A stretch of 64,000 nucleotides of DNA, taken from NCBI RefSeq assembly GCF_018350175.1, contig NC_058368.1, positions 33,482,001 through 33,546,000 of the forward strand, read 5' to 3'. This stretch comes from Felis catus (taxonomy: Eukaryota). This document shows positions 2,876 to 60,000 of this stretch, in pieces. The notes beneath the pieces were generated by a model. The model ran no database searches. It was given only the letters and a program-made list of their open reading frames with translations, and had not been told where the DNA came from. Positions within the stretch are counted from its first letter, which is position 1, and each line of letters opens with the position of its first letter. A program made the translations under genes and the position numbers.

Positions 2876-3564
2876 TAAAATGAAGAATAACATTGCATGG
2901 CATTTCCATGTTCAGAAGTCCAGACTAGAAATTGAGCTTTAGGCATCAGATTAGACGTGGTAAGTGAAGCGAGGTGAGGATGCTATCATTTAATCATCCT
3001 TTTCCCTTCATTTATCCATTATGCCATGAATCTTCTATGCCATACATTACACCATACATTTCAAGTCCTGTGATAGATACTAGGAAAGGCACTGTACAGA
3101 AAGGGAGCATAGAATAAGAAACAAAAGTAGAGAAGCGTGTATTCTAAAGGTGAACTGACCTTTGAATGCCAAATGGGGAGAAAAACTGAAATAGATACAG
3201 AGGAGAAGCTAAAGGCAGGAGCATAAAAACTAGGAGGAAATTATGCCCCATAAGACAAGAAAATATCAAGACAAAGAATACTTTGATCTGAATTTGTATT
3301 GTTTAAATAAAAACTTGTTTCTTCATCCCTTGAATCAGTGATGCTCAAATTTGTATTGGAAATGGAAATATTTCCCTAACAATAGCTTACATAAGGATCC
3401 ACAGTGACAGTGTGAGCCCTTTCTAACAACCTAGCCCCCAGCCACTCCCTGATCTCATATTCCCTCAGGCAATCTGGAGGGGGCTTGAAGAGCTACTAGA
3501 GAAAATACTACTCACACATCTTATCTTAGATAATACAAATTAATACCCAAATTTGTTTTTAATA

Positions 3565-4240
3565 GAATGGCAATTACCAGATCCTGGTAGGGGCATAGAA
3601 GAACTGACTGTCTAATAAAACACAGGTGGTGTAGAGTACATCAGCATAACTCCGTTAGGAAAACTGGCAATATCTACTGAAGCTATGTCCGTCCATAAAA
3701 TGGACAGCAATTCCTCTTTAGGCATAAACCTATGAGCAATTTGTTAATATGCTCAGCCAAGACATGTACCAGAATGATCTTAGCGGTACCCCTTGTAATA
3801 TCTCAAACAGGGAACAACACAAATGTCAAAAATATATATATAGAGAAAAATAATTTTAGGTGTGCTCACTGAAAGGGAACGGTATACAATACTGAGATTG
3901 AAAAATCTAGAACTATGTACAATGATAGATCTAAGTCTCACAAACTGTGTGTTAAAGTAGCAACTCCAGATGCAAAAGAATCTATGCTGGATGATTCTAT
4001 TTACATAACAAATTCAGGCAAAACTAACAGAAAGTGACCAAAGTCATGACAGCTGATTTCCTGAGGAATTAATGACTGCAAAGGGATGTGAGGATGATGC
4101 CTGGGGTGCTGGGAACTTTTTTCATATATGTACGGGTGACATCAATGTCTTCAGTTTGTGACAGTCTAGTCATATACTTATCACAGGTGGACTTTTCTGC
4201 ACAGAGATTTTGCCTCAACAAAAAGTTTTAAAAATTAAAC
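3565..4240 (+). mobile_element. Ancient L1 (L1ME-like) 3' end fragment
   Basis: Degenerate ORF2 end and 3'UTR motifs (cagcaattcctctttaggcata, gacatgtaccagaatg, atgattctatttacat). Confidence 0.7.
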
Positions 4241-5124
4241 AAAACTTAGGCATGTACATATTTTCTGGCACTTCAACTAGATTAGATGTTCACTGAAACA
4301 GACGACACATCAGTTTCTATTTCATGTCTATCTCCACACTGTCAATAGAACTCTAACACTCAGTTCTCATTGAATGCTTATTTAGTACATTTTACTATTG
4401 CATGTGAATGGAGTCTTTTGAAGATAACAGATGTGTTTGTTGCTTTGTGAGCAAATAATTGTAAATTATTATGACAAACTTAGAAAATAAGTATTTATGA
4501 TGTAACTGTCATTTTCTACTTGGGGAAAAAAAAGCACTGCCCATCATGTCCTTTGGTCATTCTTTTGATTTAAACTCCCAACAAATGCCTCTGACCTATT
4601 GTGAATGGATGAAATCAGGGACTGGAAATCCTTGCTTAGCACGTGCATCTAATTTTTCTTCTTTTAAGAGAGATTTCCATTCTTGTCAAAAGAAGATGTA
4701 ACATAAAATAACCTTGAAATAAGTTCATCTGCCTCTAAAATTGCTTCTCATCTGTGAATTAATACAAACGAAATTGCATGCTTATCATTTCAAGGAGCTA
4801 GCATGAGCTATCTTGATTCCAGTGATTTACTCAAAAACATTCTGCAACAACATTTTGAAAATATTTGTTTTGTCATGGTAATGTTGCAGAATGATACATT
4901 TTCAATCTATATAAGCATCCTTATGTTCAAGCCTTTGTATTGGATCAATAATTATGCTTGGGTTATTTTATTTCCATAGCCTTTAAGTAGCATTTTGAAG
5001 TTTCACTATTATTAAATAAAATCAGTGAAAAAGCTTTATATTTCGTATTTTAAAAGGATTCTAAAGAGGAAACATTGGACTTCACTGTCATCTCTAAGTT
5101 TACAGCATTTCCCCCTTATGTTCA

Positions 5125-5350
5125 CACTTCCTGTCCTCTCTCTGCCCTACTTATTTATCGTCAGCATTTATCACTACTATGGTTCTCTAAACTTTATTTA
5201 TCTTATTTCTTCTTGTCTCCTCTGTTATGACATAAGATCATTGAAGGCAACGATTATTATCTGTTCTGTTCTCTGCTCTATACTTGACATTTTTGGAACA
5301 ATACATGATACACAGGAGGTGCTGAACAAATACTTTTGAATGAATGGATA
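5125..5350 (+). mobile_element. LINE-2 3' end fragment
   Basis: Ends in acacaggaggtgctgaacaaatacttttgaatgaatggat, like the L2 3' terminus. Confidence 0.65.
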
Positions 5351-5502
5351 AGCTGCAAATAATTCAATAGTTTCAGGATAAAATGTTAGAGAAGGCTAAA
5401 TTCTCAGAAGATAGCACAGTTTTCAGCAAACTGTGGTTTTTGCTGATAGCTTCTAAATGAACACGGAGAAGAAGTTATGTTCTAACTCTAAAGCTCTCCT
5501 TA

Positions 5503-5856
5503 GGGGCACCTGGGTGGCTCCATCAGTTAAGCATCGGACTCTTGAATTTGGCTCAGGTCATGAGCTCATGGTTTGTGAGATCCAGCCCCATATCAGGCTC
5601 CACACTGGCAGCATAGAGCCTGCTTGGGATTCTCTTGGGATTCTCTCTCTCCTCCCTCTCCTCCCTCTCTTCACTTCCCCTTGCTCATGTTATTCTTCAT
5701 TTTATTATTTTTATTATTTTTTAATGTTTATTTTTTTTTCAGAGACAGACAGAGACAGAGCATGAGCAGGGGAAGGGCAGACAGAGAGGGAGACACAGAT
5801 CCAAGCAAGCTCTCTCAAAAATAAATAAACATTAAAAAAGAAGAAAAGAAAAGTTG
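5503..5856 (+). mobile_element. CAN-SINE interrupted by a 126-bp inverted insertion
   Basis: SINE head at 5503; tail resumes at about 5810; TSD aaagctctcc(t/a)ta at 5490-5502 and 5857-5869. Confidence 0.9.
5687..5812 (-). repeat. Exact inverted copy of 2768-2893 (SINE 3' half plus its unique flank)
   Basis: Base-by-base reverse-complement match over 126 nt, including homopolymer lengths. Confidence 0.93.
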
Positions 5857-5955
5857 AAAGCTCTCCATAGGTGGATTGTTTTCATAAGCAATGTAACTGC
5901 TTAGATCTGAGGTTCTTCATTCATACTGTTTGTGTTAGAATAAAAAACAACCCAT

Positions 5956-15651: not shown

Positions 15652-15867
15652 GGGGTGCTTGGGTGGCTCCGTCGGCTAAGCGTTCGACTTCAGCTCAGGT
15701 AACGATCTCGCAGCTCATGGGTTCGAGGCCCGCGTGGGGCTCTGTGCCGACAGCTCAGAGCCTGGAGCCTGTTTCAGAATCTGTGTCTCCTTCTCTCTCT
15801 GACCCACCCCGTTCATGCTCTATCTCTCTCTGTCTCAAAAATAAATAAACGTTAAAAAAAATTACAC
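15652..15867 (+). mobile_element. CAN-SINE (felid type)
   Basis: TSD ataagagatca (15641-15651 and 15868-15878). Confidence 0.95.
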
Positions 15868-19847: not shown

Positions 19848-20120
19848 TAAACACATACTTTAGTGGTTCTACTGAAATGCATAATATCGTACACTTGTCA
19901 AGTATTTAGTTGTCACAATACATTATGAAGTAGAAATTATTATTATAATAATTCCCATTTTGGAGATAAGAAAAATAAAAACCAGAAAGACTGAATACTA
20001 AAATATCCAAATGCCACTTATTTTGTATTTAAGCATGTTGAAGGTATTTTGGTTTACTGCAATATCAGAATTATACTTAATACTTAAAAACTCATTTTAT
20101 GATTTTAAGCATTTATCTTT

Positions 20121-20324
20121 TTTTTTAAATTTTTTTTAATGTTAATTTTTGAGAGAGAGTGTGAGTGGGGGGGGGGCAGAGAGAGAGGGAGACAGAATCC
20201 GAAGAAGGCGCCAGGCTATGAGCTGTCAGCACAGAGCCCCACGCGGGGCTAGAACTCACGAACTGTGAGATCATGAACTGAGCCGAAGTCAGAGGCTTAA
20301 CCGACTGAGCCACCCAGGTGCCCC
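20121..20324 (-). mobile_element. CAN-SINE
   Basis: TSD aagcatttatcttt (20107-20120 and 20325-20338). Confidence 0.95.
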
Positions 20325-20423
20325 AAGCATTTATCTTTAAAACATTCTAAAAATAAAGCAACTGGCATAGCTTTAATCATAAACACAATTTTCTTCACAC
20401 AAAATTGGCTTTTCATAGTTTTA

Positions 20424-20674
20424 TTTATTTTTTTTATTTTTTATTTTTTATTTTATTTTTTTTTGTTTTAATGTTTATTATTTATTTTTGAGACAGAGAG
20501 AGACAGAGCATGAACAGCGGAGGGGCAGAGAGAGGGGGAGACACACAATGGAAGCAGGCTCCAGGCTCTGAGCCATCAGCCCAGAGCCCGACGCGGGCCT
20601 CGAACTCATGGACCGCGAGATCGTGACCTGAGCTGAAGTCGGACGCCCAACCGACGGAGCCACCCAGGCGCCCC
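20424..20674 (-). mobile_element. CAN-SINE (young, CpG-rich)
   Basis: TSD tttcatagtttta (20411-20423 and 20675-20687). Confidence 0.95.
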
Positions 20675-20742
20675 TTTCATAGTTTTAATTTAAACTATTC
20701 TACATTTTTCCTTTAAGAATTTATTAAAAACTTTTAAATCAA

Positions 20743-20940
20743 GGGACGCCTGGGTGGCTCAGTCGGTTGAGTGTCTGACTTCCACTCAGGTCATGATCTC
20801 AAATTCTGTTCCAGCCCCATATCCAGCTCTATGCTGACAGCTCGGAGCCTGAAGCCTGCCCCAGATTCTGTATCTCCCTCTCTCTACTCATGCTCTCTCT
20901 CTCTCTCAAAATAATAAATAAACATTAAAAAAAATTTATA
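20743..20940 (+). mobile_element. CAN-SINE
   Basis: gggacgcctgggtggctcagtcgg head, (CT)n and an A tail. Confidence 0.9.
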
Positions 20941-34477: not shown

Positions 34478-34535
<58 letters not shown>

Positions 34536-34544
34536 CTTTCTTTT

Positions 34545-34591
<47 letters not shown>

Positions 34592-34737
34592 CTTTCTTCT
34601 TGCTTTTTCTTTCTTTCTTCTTGCTCTTTCTTTCTTTCTTTCTTTCTTCTTTTTCTTTCTTCTTGCTTTCTCCTTTCTTTCTTTCTTTCTTTCTTTCTTT
34701 CCTTTTCTTTTCTTTTCTTTCCTTTTCTTTTCTTTTT
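34437..34737. repeat. Compound (CTTT)n/(CCTT)n/(CTTTT)n polypyrimidine microsatellite
   Basis: About 300 bp of almost pure C/T. Confidence 0.97.
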
Positions 34738-41535: not shown

Positions 41536-41740
41536 GGGGCACCTCAGTCGGTTAAGCGGCCGACTTCAGCTCAGGTCATGATCTCGCGGTCTGTGAGTTC
41601 GAGCCCCGTGTCAGGCTCTGTGCCGACAGCTCAGAGCCTGGAGCCTGTTTCAGAATCTGTGTCTCCCTCTCTCTCTGGCCCTCCCCTGTTCATGCTCTGT
41701 CTCTCTCTGTCTCAAAAATAAATAAATGTTTAAAAAAGAA
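41536..41740 (+). mobile_element. CAN-SINE (young; small deletion in the head)
   Basis: TSD aagaaat(t/a)ccacataga (41518-41534 and 41741-41757). Confidence 0.95.
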
Positions 41741-51844: not shown

Positions 51845-52880
51845 TTTTATTTTTATAACTCTATTGAGTTGTAATTGACATCCAGTAATTAAATAAAGTT
51901 TATAATTTGATGTTTTGATATCTGTATACAATTATGAATCCAACATCAAAATGGTAAAGAACATATCTATCACCCTCAAAAGCTTCCTTATACCCTGTTT
52001 AATCCGTTTTGTCTGCCTCTCCCCACATCCCCCAACCTATCACCTTCCCTAGATAATCTGTAATCTACTTACTGTTACTAAAGATCAATTTGCATTGTAT
52101 AGAATTTAAGACAAATGAAATTTATACAGGATGTACTTTTTTTAAAGTTCCTATAAATCTTTTTTCCTCAGTTTTTTTTGAGGAATAAATGACATACATC
52201 ACTGTATAAGTTAAGGCATAAATCATGATGGCTTGAATTACATGTATTATGAAATGATTACTACAATAGGTTCAGGTAATGCCCATCTTCTCAAATAAAT
52301 ACAAAAAAAATATTTTTTTTCCTTGTGGTGAGAACTCTTAACAACTTTCTAGGAGTGTTTCTATAGTTTCTATAAACAACTTTATAGCAGTGTTAGCTAT
52401 AGTCCTCATGTTGCACATTATAATCCCTGGTGCTTATTTATTTTATAATTGGAAGTTTGTACCTTCCTCAAATTCCTCCTCTCTTCCATCCCTCCACCTC
52501 TGGTAACTACAAGTATGATCACTTTTTCTATAAGGTGGTTTTGTTTGTTTTTTTTTTAAATTCTACCTATAAGTGAGATTATACAGTATTTGTTTTTCTC
52601 TGTCTCACATATTTCTCACTTATTTCGCTTTGAGTAATTTCCAATATCCCATCCTCCAGGTTGCTGATTCTTTCTTCTGCATGGTTGAGTCTACCTTTGA
52701 AACTCTGTTGAATTCTTTGGTTTAGTTATTGTATTTTTCAACTCTAGGGTTTGTTTTTTTCTTTTTTTTTCTTTTTTGCTTTCATTCTTTTTTTCTTCCT
52801 TCCTTCCATTCGTTCCTTCTTTCTTTTTTTTTTTATGGTAGTTGCTGTTTCCTTGTTAACTTCTTGTTTTGTTCATGCAA
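51845..52880 (-). mobile_element. Nested antisense L1 fragments (two 3' ends and an ORF1-region piece)
   Basis: 3' end motifs at about 51850 and 52172; cctctggtaactac and ataagtgagattatacagtatttg motifs. Confidence 0.7.
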
Positions 52881-53179
52881 TAACATAATAAATATTCTTT
52901 TTGTAGTATCTCAAGGAAATGTTACCAAAATTGATGAAAGGTGAGCTCTGAAGAAAGTCTCCACCAATTTCAGAGAAACAAATTATGTAACATATGTTTT
53001 CTGGCTTCAGTGGAATTCAGGTTGAATTCAGTAACATGAAATAATTAGAAAACGTATTATATATATATTTAGTTGGAATAATAATAAAAACGTGTCAATT
53101 CAAAAATTATGCCTTAAACATATACAGTGATCTATATCATTTATTCCTTAAAAAAACTGGGGAAAAATATTTATAGGAA

Positions 53180-53421
53180 CTTAAAAAAAAGTACATCCTG
53201 TATAATTTCATTTGTCTTAAATTCTATACAATGCAAACTGATCTTTAATAACAGTAAGTAGATTACAGATTATCTGGGGAAAGTGATAGGTTGAGGGATG
53301 TGGGGAGAGGCAGACAAAATGGATTAAACAGGGTTTAAGGAAACTTGAGGGTGATGGATATGTTCTTTACCATTTTGATGTTGGATTCATAATTGTAAAA
53401 TATAATGGATATATATAAAAC

Positions 53422-57002: not shown

Positions 57003-60000
57003 TGTTGTTTTAATTATATTTTACTTCAGTATAATTAACATACAGTGTTATATACAAGTTTCAGGTCTACAGTATAGTAATTCGACAATTTTACATATAC
57101 TCAGTACTCTTTATGATTACTGTATAGTTACCCGTCACCAATTTCACCCACCCCCCACACACCACCCCTCTGGTAATCAACAGTTTTTTTCTCTATATTT
57201 CAGAGTCTGTTTTTGTTTCTTTTTTTTCTTTGTTCGTTTCTTTTGTTTAGATTCCACATGACTGAAATTATATGGTATTTGTCTTTCTCTGACTTATTTT
57301 ACTTAGTATTGTACGTTGTACATCCATCCATGTTGCTACAAATGATAAAATTTCATTCTTTTTTCTATGACTGAGTGATACTCCATTGCATATGTGTGTT
57401 TATTCATTTATCAATGGGTACTTGAACTGCTTCCATAGTTTGGCTATTGTAAATATCGCTGCAATGAACATGGGGATGCAAATATCTTTTCAAATTAGTG
57501 TTTTCCTATTCTTTTGGAAAATACCCAGTAGTATAATTTCTGGATCATGTGGCAATCCTATTTTTAACTTTTTGAGGAACCTTCATACTGTTTTCTACAG
57601 TGGTGCACCAGTTTGCAGTCCCACCAGCTGTGGGAATTTTCAAAGGTGGCTTTTCCTCCCCAGCCAATACTTCTTGTTTATTATCTTACAGATTTTAGCC
57701 ATTCTGACACGTGTTAGGTGATATTTCATTGTGCTTTTGAATTTCATTTCTGTGATGATTAGTGATGTTGAGCATCTTTTCATGTGTCTGTTGGCCATCT
57801 GGATGTCTACTTTGGTCAAAATGTCCATGTCTTCTGCTCATTTTTAAACTGGATTGTTTTTAGTGTTGAGTTGCACAAATTCTTTGTATCTTATAGATAC
57901 TAACACTTCATCAGATATGTCATTTACAAATATTTTCTCCCATTCAGTGGGCTCTCTTTTTGCTTCCTCAATTGTGGGTTTTTGTTGTTGTTGTTGTTGT
58001 TTGTTTGTTTGTGTTGCTGTGCAGAAGCTTTTTATTTTGATATGGTTCCAATAGTGTATTTTTGCTTTTGTTTCCCTTGCCTTAGGAAACGCGTATAGAA
58101 AAATGTTGCCACAGGTGATGTCAGAGATATTACTGCATGTCTCCTCTTCTATGATTTTTATGGTTTCAGGTCTCACATTTAGGTCCTTAATCCATTTTGA
58201 GTTTATTTGTGTATGATGTAAGAAAGTGGTCTGGTTTCATTCTTTGTCTGTAGCTGTCAAGTTTTCCTCACACCGTTTGTTGAAGGGACTGTCTTTTTTC
58301 CCCTTACATATTCTTGATTCCTTTGTTGGAGATTGAGGATATAGTTGTGGGTTTATTTCTGGATTTTTTAATTCTATTCTCTTAATCTATATGTCTATTT
58401 TTGTGCCAGTACCAAACTGTTTAGATTATTATAGCTTTATAATATAACTTGAAGTCTAGAATTGTGATACCTCAAGTTTTGTTATTCTTTTTCAAGATTG
58501 CTTTGGCTATTCAGGGTCTTTTGTGGTTCCATTCAAGTTTTAGGATTGTTTGTTCTAGTTCTGTGAAAAATCCTATTGGTATTTGGATAGGGATTGCATT
58601 AAATCTGTAGACTGCTTTGGGTAGCATGGGTATTTTAACAATATTTGTTTTTCCATCCATGAGCCTGAAATACTTTTCCATTTATTTGTGTCATCTTCAA
58701 TTTCTTTCATCAATATCTTCTATTTTTTAGAGTACAGTCTTGCATCTGTTTGGTTAAATTTATCCTGAGGTGTTTTAATGCCATTGGTGCAATTGAAAAT
58801 GGGATTGTTTTCTTAATTTCTTTTTCTGTCGCTTCATTATTAGTGTATAAAAAATGTAATAACTTTATCTACATTGATTTTGTATCCTGTGACTTTACTG
58901 AATTCATTTATCAGTTCTTGTAGTTTTTTGATAGCATTGTTAGGCTTTTCTACATAGCGTATCATATGCAAATAGTGAAAATTTTACTTCTTACTTACCA
59001 ATTTGGATGCCTTGTATTCCTTTTTCTTGTGTGATTGCTGTGGCTGGGACTTCCAGTACTATGTTAAATAAAAGTGGTGAGGGTGGACATCCTTGTCTTG
59101 TTCCTGACCTTACAGGAAAAGCTCTCAGTTTTTCTCCATTGCGTATGTTAGCTGTGATGTTTCATATATGGCCACTATTATGTTGAGATATGTTCCCTCT
59201 CAACCTATGTTGTTGAGGGTTTTCATCATGAATGGATGTTGTCAAATGCTTTGTCTGCATCTATTGAAATGATCAGATGGTTTTATTCTTTCACTTGTTG
59301 ATATGATATATAACACTGATTAATTTGCAAATATTGAGCCATTCTTCTAACTCAGGAATAAATCCCACTTGACTGTAGTGAATGATTTTTTAAATGTATT
59401 ATTGGAATCAGGTTACTAATATTTTGTTGAGGGTTTTTGCATTTATGTTTTTTTTTTAGAGATATGGGCCTGTCGTTCTTTTTGGTAGTTTCTTCAATGG
59501 ATTTTGATATCCAGGTAATGCTGCCCTCACAGGATGAATTGGAAAGTTTTCCTTCTTCTTCTATTTGTTGAAATAAAAGGACAGCTTTGAGAAGGACAAG
59601 TATTATGTCTTCTTTAAATGTTCAGTAGAATTCACCTGTGAAGCCATCTGGTCTTGGATTTTTGTTCCTTGAGAGTTTTTTGAATACTGATTTCATTTCA
59701 TTGCTGATAATCTGTCTGTTCAAATGACCTATTTCTTCCTGATTCAGCTTTGGGAGATTTTATGTTTCCAAAAATTTATCCATATATGCTAGGTTGTCCA
59801 ATTTGTTGGCATTTAATTTTTTATAATATTCTCTTAAATCCTTTGTTTTCTCTGCTATTAATGGTTATTTCTCCTCTTTCAGTTCTGAATTTTATTTGAG
59901 TCCTGTCTCTCTCTGTCTCAGTCCCATCTCTCTTTCTGTTTCTTTCTATCTCTTTTTTATGAATCTGGCTAAAGGCTTATCAATTTTGTTAATCTTTTCA

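Follow-up and report, generated by a model that had tools for sequence, protein, structure and literature searches.

How does a stretch of DNA come to lie, exact and reversed, inside a SINE whose own sequence continues on both sides of it? The question is raised by positions 5687-5812 of the cat sequence analysed here, a stretch of 64,000 nucleotides that we call the window and whose first letter is position 1. A preliminary description of this locus proposed that the tail of one SINE, together with the unique DNA next to it, had been copied in inverted orientation into another SINE 2.8 kb away, by a process other than retrotransposition. Our analysis argues that the insert is probably a real and neutral local inverted duplication, made on a DNA template through two template switches. 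Below, we describe the match, the two SINEs, the age of the copy and its junctions, weigh the other explanations where the evidence bears on them, and compare the locus with known classes of rearrangement.

Results

In the assembled sequence, 5687-5812 is the exact reverse complement of 2768-2893. All 126 of 126 positions pair, with 0 mismatches and 0 bases of extension on either side, and the two arms are separated by 2793 nt. The perfect inverted copy that had been described is confirmed as to the assembly, and the identical homopolymer lengths pointed out in both arms follow from the perfect identity. None of the other maximal exact matches of at least 24 nt in the 64-kb window, 255 in all, is as long as this arm pair, and the next-longest non-tandem match measures 53 nt. 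Among the 28 SINE copies in the window, compared in 377 pairs (one of 378 was left out for proximity), the longest exact match per pair has a median of 17 nt and a maximum of 53 nt. The insert shares 126 nt with its donor and at most 18 nt with each of the other 27 copies. A 13-mer from the donor TSD occurs at three places in the window, 2642 (+), 2881 (+) and 5687 (-), all of which are accounted for. Elsewhere, two SINEs 26 kb apart share a 53-nt exact direct match (15738-15790 and 41614-41666) with a common AGAATCTG variant, likely as members of the same subfamily or through a short conversion tract, and a long (CTTT)n microsatellite at 34478-34598 includes a 56-nt exact tandem repeat unit pair.

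The donor is an aged SINE on the plus strand (2655-2875), framed by a left TSD at 2637-2654 and a right TSD at 2876-2893 that are identical at 18 of 18 positions. The template segment, 2768-2893, comprises the 3' body of the donor, its A-rich tail and its right TSD, so that the copy crosses the SINE boundary and ends with the last base of that TSD. The non-SINE flank noted earlier inside the insert is this donor TSD, copied through all of its 18 bp. The host is a SINE in the same plus orientation, so that the insert is antisense within it. Its left TSD lies at 5490-5502, its 5' part at 5503-5689, the inverted copy (minus strand) at 5687-5812, the resumed tail at 5813-5856 and the right TSD at 5857-5869, matching the left one at 12 of 13 positions. 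The host 5' part looks like an older subtype distinct from that of the donor, with 73% identity to the donor head and 77-80% to the long matches most similar to it in the window. In addition, upstream of the insertion site the host carries internal tandem duplications (5617-5670), in which cttgggattct and ctcctccctct each occur twice. We take both elements to be carnivore tRNA-derived SINEs of the felid type.

This arrangement gives the copying a direction. Segment 2768-2893 is continuous with the donor head and closes the donor TSD pair, and 5687-5812 interrupts the host tail. Therefore, the sequence was copied from donor to host. The 2793-nt spacer (2894-5686) is not inverted: it contains the host head and left TSD, and these still run in line with the host tail and right TSD beyond its end. 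The TSDs are collinear in both SINEs (18/18 in the donor, 12/13 in the host), which upholds the earlier statement on the intervening DNA. The same observation bears on the idea that the arms are the scar of a spacer inversion made by staggered breaks. Staggered-break inversions leave inverted duplications at their ends. With the host parts collinear and the donor intact, however, inversion of the spacer is refuted, and we leave it almost no probability.

The donor is old. Compared with the consensus of 15 similar copies in the window, it differs at 16 of 164 non-CpG sites (9.8%) and has changed at 11 of 22 CpG sites. In the copied part, it departs from the majority of the 15 copies by 9 substitutions and 2 gaps. 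Four of the 9 substitutions are found in none of the 15 copies; 2 of the 9 sit at the soft start of the A-tail. The insert carries every one of these substitutions and gaps, in line with the earlier remark that private variants of the donor reappear in it. This points to the donor locus after its ageing as the template, rather than to a consensus-like active element. Since the donor is old and yet the copy is identical, the copying postdates the ageing. How much later it took place is bounded loosely. The 0 differences in 126 sites limit pairwise divergence to 2.35% at most (95% bound), which corresponds to ~5 My at 2.3e-9 per site per year and ~12 My at 1e-9. The faster rate is 0.86e-8 per generation at 3.8 years, as given in the accessible text of bioRxiv 10.1101/2021.04.06.438608. 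The event had been called very recent, which overstates the case, as the identity only caps its age at about 5-12 My. The identical homopolymer lengths would favour the young end of this range, and a very recent origin is possible from the sequence.

A second inverted pair in the window offers a comparison. Positions 51927-52221 and 53107-53397 match over 296 columns at 92.6% identity across an 885-nt spacer and lie outside SINEs, presumably in old LINE-like DNA. Of its two arms, 53107-53397 looks like the insert; by eye, a 10-mer is found near 53087 and again near 53417, together with intervening filler bases. The pair probably arose by an earlier event of the same class. The divergence of its arms rules out an assembly copy, and its 92.6% identity indicates that such pairs persist without becoming identical.

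The last point matters for an older origin, in which the copy would be connected with the retrotransposition of the donor itself or with the donor TSD. The copy could have been made during donor insertion and its arms later made identical by gene conversion, or synthesis could have been primed at the left TSD and then have jumped through the 18-bp TSD homology. In target-primed insertion, synthesis of the second strand finishes with the last base of the right TSD, and the copy stops exactly there, at 2893. In addition, the left TSD copy matches over one base more (CATG, 19 nt), and 2 of the 104 CAT sites within 5 kb upstream end donor TSDs, a post hoc count. A copy made at donor insertion without later conversion is ruled out by the age of the donor. 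With a donor ~10% diverged, complete and recent conversion of the 126-nt arm would be needed, whereas the 51927-53397 pair was not homogenised, and the endpoint is a single post hoc coincidence of 1-2%. We therefore regard this older origin as very unlikely.

A related idea is that the TSDs of old retroelements guide later template switches, so that the copy ended at the last base of the donor TSD for a reason. Synthesis primed at one TSD copy might have crossed to the other through their 18 bp of homology, or a molecular end might have persisted at the TSD. If this were true, small inverted duplications would start preferentially at TSD ends, linking retrotransposon scars to replication errors. 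We consider such guidance very doubtful. The 5 kb upstream contain 104 CAT sites, of which the endpoint is one, and the reading that we favour takes its coincidence with the final base of the right TSD as chance. The insert matters little by itself; it would matter more only if this coincidence proved to be a genome-wide rule.

The junctions can be parsed in two ways. GCTC stands on both sides of the 126-nt insert, at 5683-5686 and 5809-5812. In the first parse, the host site had ATG followed by CTC, the net insertion is 120 nt, and the microhomology would be 3 nt on the left (ATG, 5687-5689) and 3-4 nt on the right ((G)CTC, 5809-5812), with one G shared. In the second parse, the host site had a single GCTC, and 126 nt were inserted with one blunt junction and 4 nt duplicated. 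An empty allele 120 bp shorter and one 126 bp shorter with a 4-bp duplication would fit the sequence equally well. The earlier claim of microhomology at both junctions fits the first parse but hinges on an unseen empty allele, for which the second parse is a rival. The CATGCT tail motif implied by the first parse occurs in 10 of 27 other SINE copies by an eye count. It occurs in 0 of 6 host-type tails, taken from copies picked among BLAST hits in the window, so that the left microhomology has no independent support. When inverted 120-mers were drawn at random from upstream DNA, 0.27% of 200,000 draws gave 3 + 4 nt of microhomology under the 120-bp-shorter allele, a figure that is conditional and partly circular because the allele is itself reconstructed from the junctions.

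The junctions also bear on ordinary retrotransposition, in which the insert would be a SINE truncated at its 5' end and carrying a 3' transduction, or a member of a small flank-carrying subfamily, and GCTC would be a 4-bp TSD. GCTC does flank the full insert of the 126-nt parse, and the minus strand of the insert reads as the 3' end of a SINE. The longest flanking duplication in 40 parses is 4 nt, however, and under either parse the insert has no TSD of at least 5 nt, no new poly(A) and no TTTT/A site, which argues against retrotransposition. The claim that a TSD is absent thus holds for duplications of 5 nt or more and must be tempered by the 4-bp GCTC duplication of the 126-nt parse; that the insert lacks a poly(A) of its own stands, none having been added after the copied flank. 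In class 1 TSIPs, as described in the accessible part of PMC5110952, the TSD is 5 bp or more; a poly(A) after the flank and a TTTT/A target belong to that class, and neither is present here. With the source, in addition, only 2.8 kb away, ordinary retrotransposition is hardly credible for this insert.

Our data suggest instead that the insert was copied locally from DNA, as had been proposed, since it crosses the SINE boundary, lacks a poly(A) and carries the ageing changes of the donor. In the route that we favour, a 3' end would arise in the host SINE tail, at a stalled fork or a break, and pair over 3-4 nt with the same-sense strand at the donor, ~2.8 kb upstream. Its partner might be a resected overhang, a nascent strand or the lagging-strand template, and an inverted template located upstream is what fold-back onto any of these would be expected to give. 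About 120 nt would then be synthesised backwards through the donor TSD, the A-tail and the 3' body, after which 3-4 nt of microhomology would lead back to the host, which would lose little or none of its DNA. The product order would be 3-2-1-4 in four-point notation. By a mirror route, a leftward-moving end primed at GAGC would yield the same product, so either strand may have been the one extended. The enzymes of the event are not readable from the sequence.

Whether the allele exists in cells is a separate matter, and it probably does. An assembly or polishing artefact would mean that a chimeric read or a local gap-fill put nearby sequence in reversed. The perfect identity, homopolymer lengths included, is what such an error would leave, and the junctions are known here from assembled sequence alone. 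A run index searched over 5540-5950 returned 20 runs with one organism label from 10 studies, containing 0.69-0.76 of 42 sampled words, besides 4 raw runs outside the index, and no indexed run exceeded 32 of 42. The predicted shares are 0.86 for a non-carrier, 0.75 for a carrier whose arm was dropped and 0.68 for a carrier whose arm and right junction were dropped. Exactly 32 of 42 words would be seen with a probability of 0.148 if a carrier lost the arm, of 0.146 if a non-carrier had one SNP, and of 0.029 if a non-carrier retained every other word. The value of 32 of 42 is therefore equally expected from carriers without the 126-nt arm (mean 31.4) and from non-carriers with one private SNP (mean 32.7). 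As the observed shares fit both genotypes, we use the index neither for nor against the allele. A share of 1.0 would be expected from a carrier that retained every word, and the observed shares count against the allele being common. The accessible text of the Logan preprint gives the rule for contigs under 150 bp in two different forms.

Several features of the locus speak against an artefact. The window contains no N, the interruption of the host is clean, with overlaps of 3-4 nt, and the second, diverged pair in the window repeats the geometry. A misjoin in a k-mer graph would also not leave junction overlaps as short as 3-4 nt. Taken with the points in its favour, an assembly artefact is unlikely, and a genuine duplication is the reading that we carry forward.

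The inverted repeat had been suggested to seed an inversion or to form dsRNA. In this respect it is unremarkable. Of 14 inverted matches of at least 100 columns within about 5 kb, 12 are ordinary SINE pairs of 69-85% identity, so that fold-back RNA would not depend on the insert. At 20120-20940, three SINEs form a cluster, two on the minus strand and one on the plus strand with its head ~70 nt from that of the second. The 126-bp arms are also short by comparison with resolved balanced inversions in humans, most of which (132 of 183 in the accessible part of bioRxiv 10.1101/2021.12.20.472354) are flanked by inverted repeats of at least 200 bp. No host exon was found by a Pfam search of candidate frames in the window, a weak test that is compatible with a long intron. 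The frames were those passing a splice-site filter or of at least 80 aa, except for those in one short section of the spacer, and 1 of 111 gave a match, an RVT_1 fragment of L1 type on the minus strand at 58994-59161 (E 3.4e-05, under the gathering score, part of a decayed L1). A plus-strand frame at 3-1478 is open for 492 codons from the window edge and has no Pfam match, and 18-1475 is 70.6% similar to 57253-58710 (minus strand), both being L1 ORF2-like. No function of the insert is indicated, and it looks like an ordinary scar of DNA copying or repair. If real, it can serve in teaching as a clean example, and as a homoplasy-free marker in trees of populations or species.

Discussion

The locus shares features with several known systems, which we compare here as they are described in the accessible parts of the cited papers. 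In class 2 TSIPs (Onozawa and Aplan 2016, PMC5110952), the insert lacks a TSD and poly(A), the donor stays intact and the junctions show microhomology, as they would here under the first parse. However, their donors are distant and RNA templates have been proposed for them, whereas the donor at this locus is only 2.8 kb away. By analogy, a read-through SINE transcript might have been reverse-transcribed into a break, independently of an endonuclease. The insert does consist of part of a SINE and its downstream flank, and the first T4 terminator past the donor is at 3000, so that a Pol III transcript would span 2768-2893. The insert bears neither a splice mark nor a poly(A) by which an RNA intermediate might be recognised. 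Yet the donor is CpG-decayed, and a landing 2.8 kb from the source in a gigabase genome would be left unexplained. We give such an RNA-templated patch very little probability and prefer a DNA template.

Among DNA-templated processes, the preliminary description named MMBIR/FoSTeS or polymerase theta. Two template switches agree with our reading. The second part is harder to reconcile with the distance, as theta or SD-MMEJ snap-back is defined for templates up to ~30 nt from the break. SD-MMEJ (Khodaverdian et al. 2017, PMC5728401) resembles our model in that a 3' end turns back to copy its own strand, then unwinds and joins the other end through a new microhomology, leaving an inverted repeat. 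Its motifs lie within 30 bp of the break, whereas 126 nt were copied here from 2.8 kb away. ODIRA, which uses inverted repeats 40-80 bp apart and produces triplications (PMC10766186), is a misfit.

MMB-TI (Osia et al. 2021, PMC8421209) and short-range template switches (Walker et al. 2021, PMC7954356) are also alike in their outline. In both, a nearby sequence is copied in inverted orientation through a few nucleotides of microhomology, synthesis returns to the site that it left and a single inverted repeat of order 3-2-1-4 results. Microhomology averages 3.7 bp in the analysed junction set, the copied length in these surveys has a median of 12 and a maximum of 128, and MMB-TIs have been found as germline variants (PMC8421209, PMC7954356). 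The templates in the surveys, however, lie within 100 bp or tens to hundreds of nucleotides (PMC8421209, PMC7954356), as against 2.8 kb here. The event at this locus therefore works alike at a longer range, outside the distances that define those classes. It agrees with the small proximal inverted duplications discussed below in its length, spacing and orientation. Template distances of a few kilobases were reportedly described by Abyzov et al. in 2015. The accessible part of PMC4937565 contains nothing on template distances.

The remaining comparison is with the 'Inverted Dup' variants of the 1000 Genomes call sets, the commonest inversion-type class there (PMC4617611, PMC12350158). Among the human inversions sequenced by Sudmant et al. 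2015, 54% were inverted duplications, nearly all of them shorter than 1 kb, at most 5 kb from the other copy and not typically linked to retrotransposition (PMC4617611). Schloissnig et al. 2025 counted 277 inverted duplications among 733 inversions outside mobile-element insertions, with a median of 284 bp and mostly 1-15 bp of microhomology (PMC12350158). At our locus, the duplicated stretch is 126 nt, the inverted arms lie 2793 nt apart, the source is intact and the spacer uninverted by the collinear TSDs in both SINEs, and the junctions show either 3 and 3-4 nt of microhomology or one blunt joint with a 4-bp duplication, depending on the parse. The cat event differs in that it comes from a non-human assembly, is known here from that one assembly, and has both its source and its target in SINE tails. 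A limited literature search found no felid reports of such events, which does not show their absence. In general, our data support the preliminary interpretation in part, and by its geometry the event probably belongs to this well-known class of small proximal inverted duplications. If real, it places the human class in this lineage as well, where it may have arisen twice within 64 kb.
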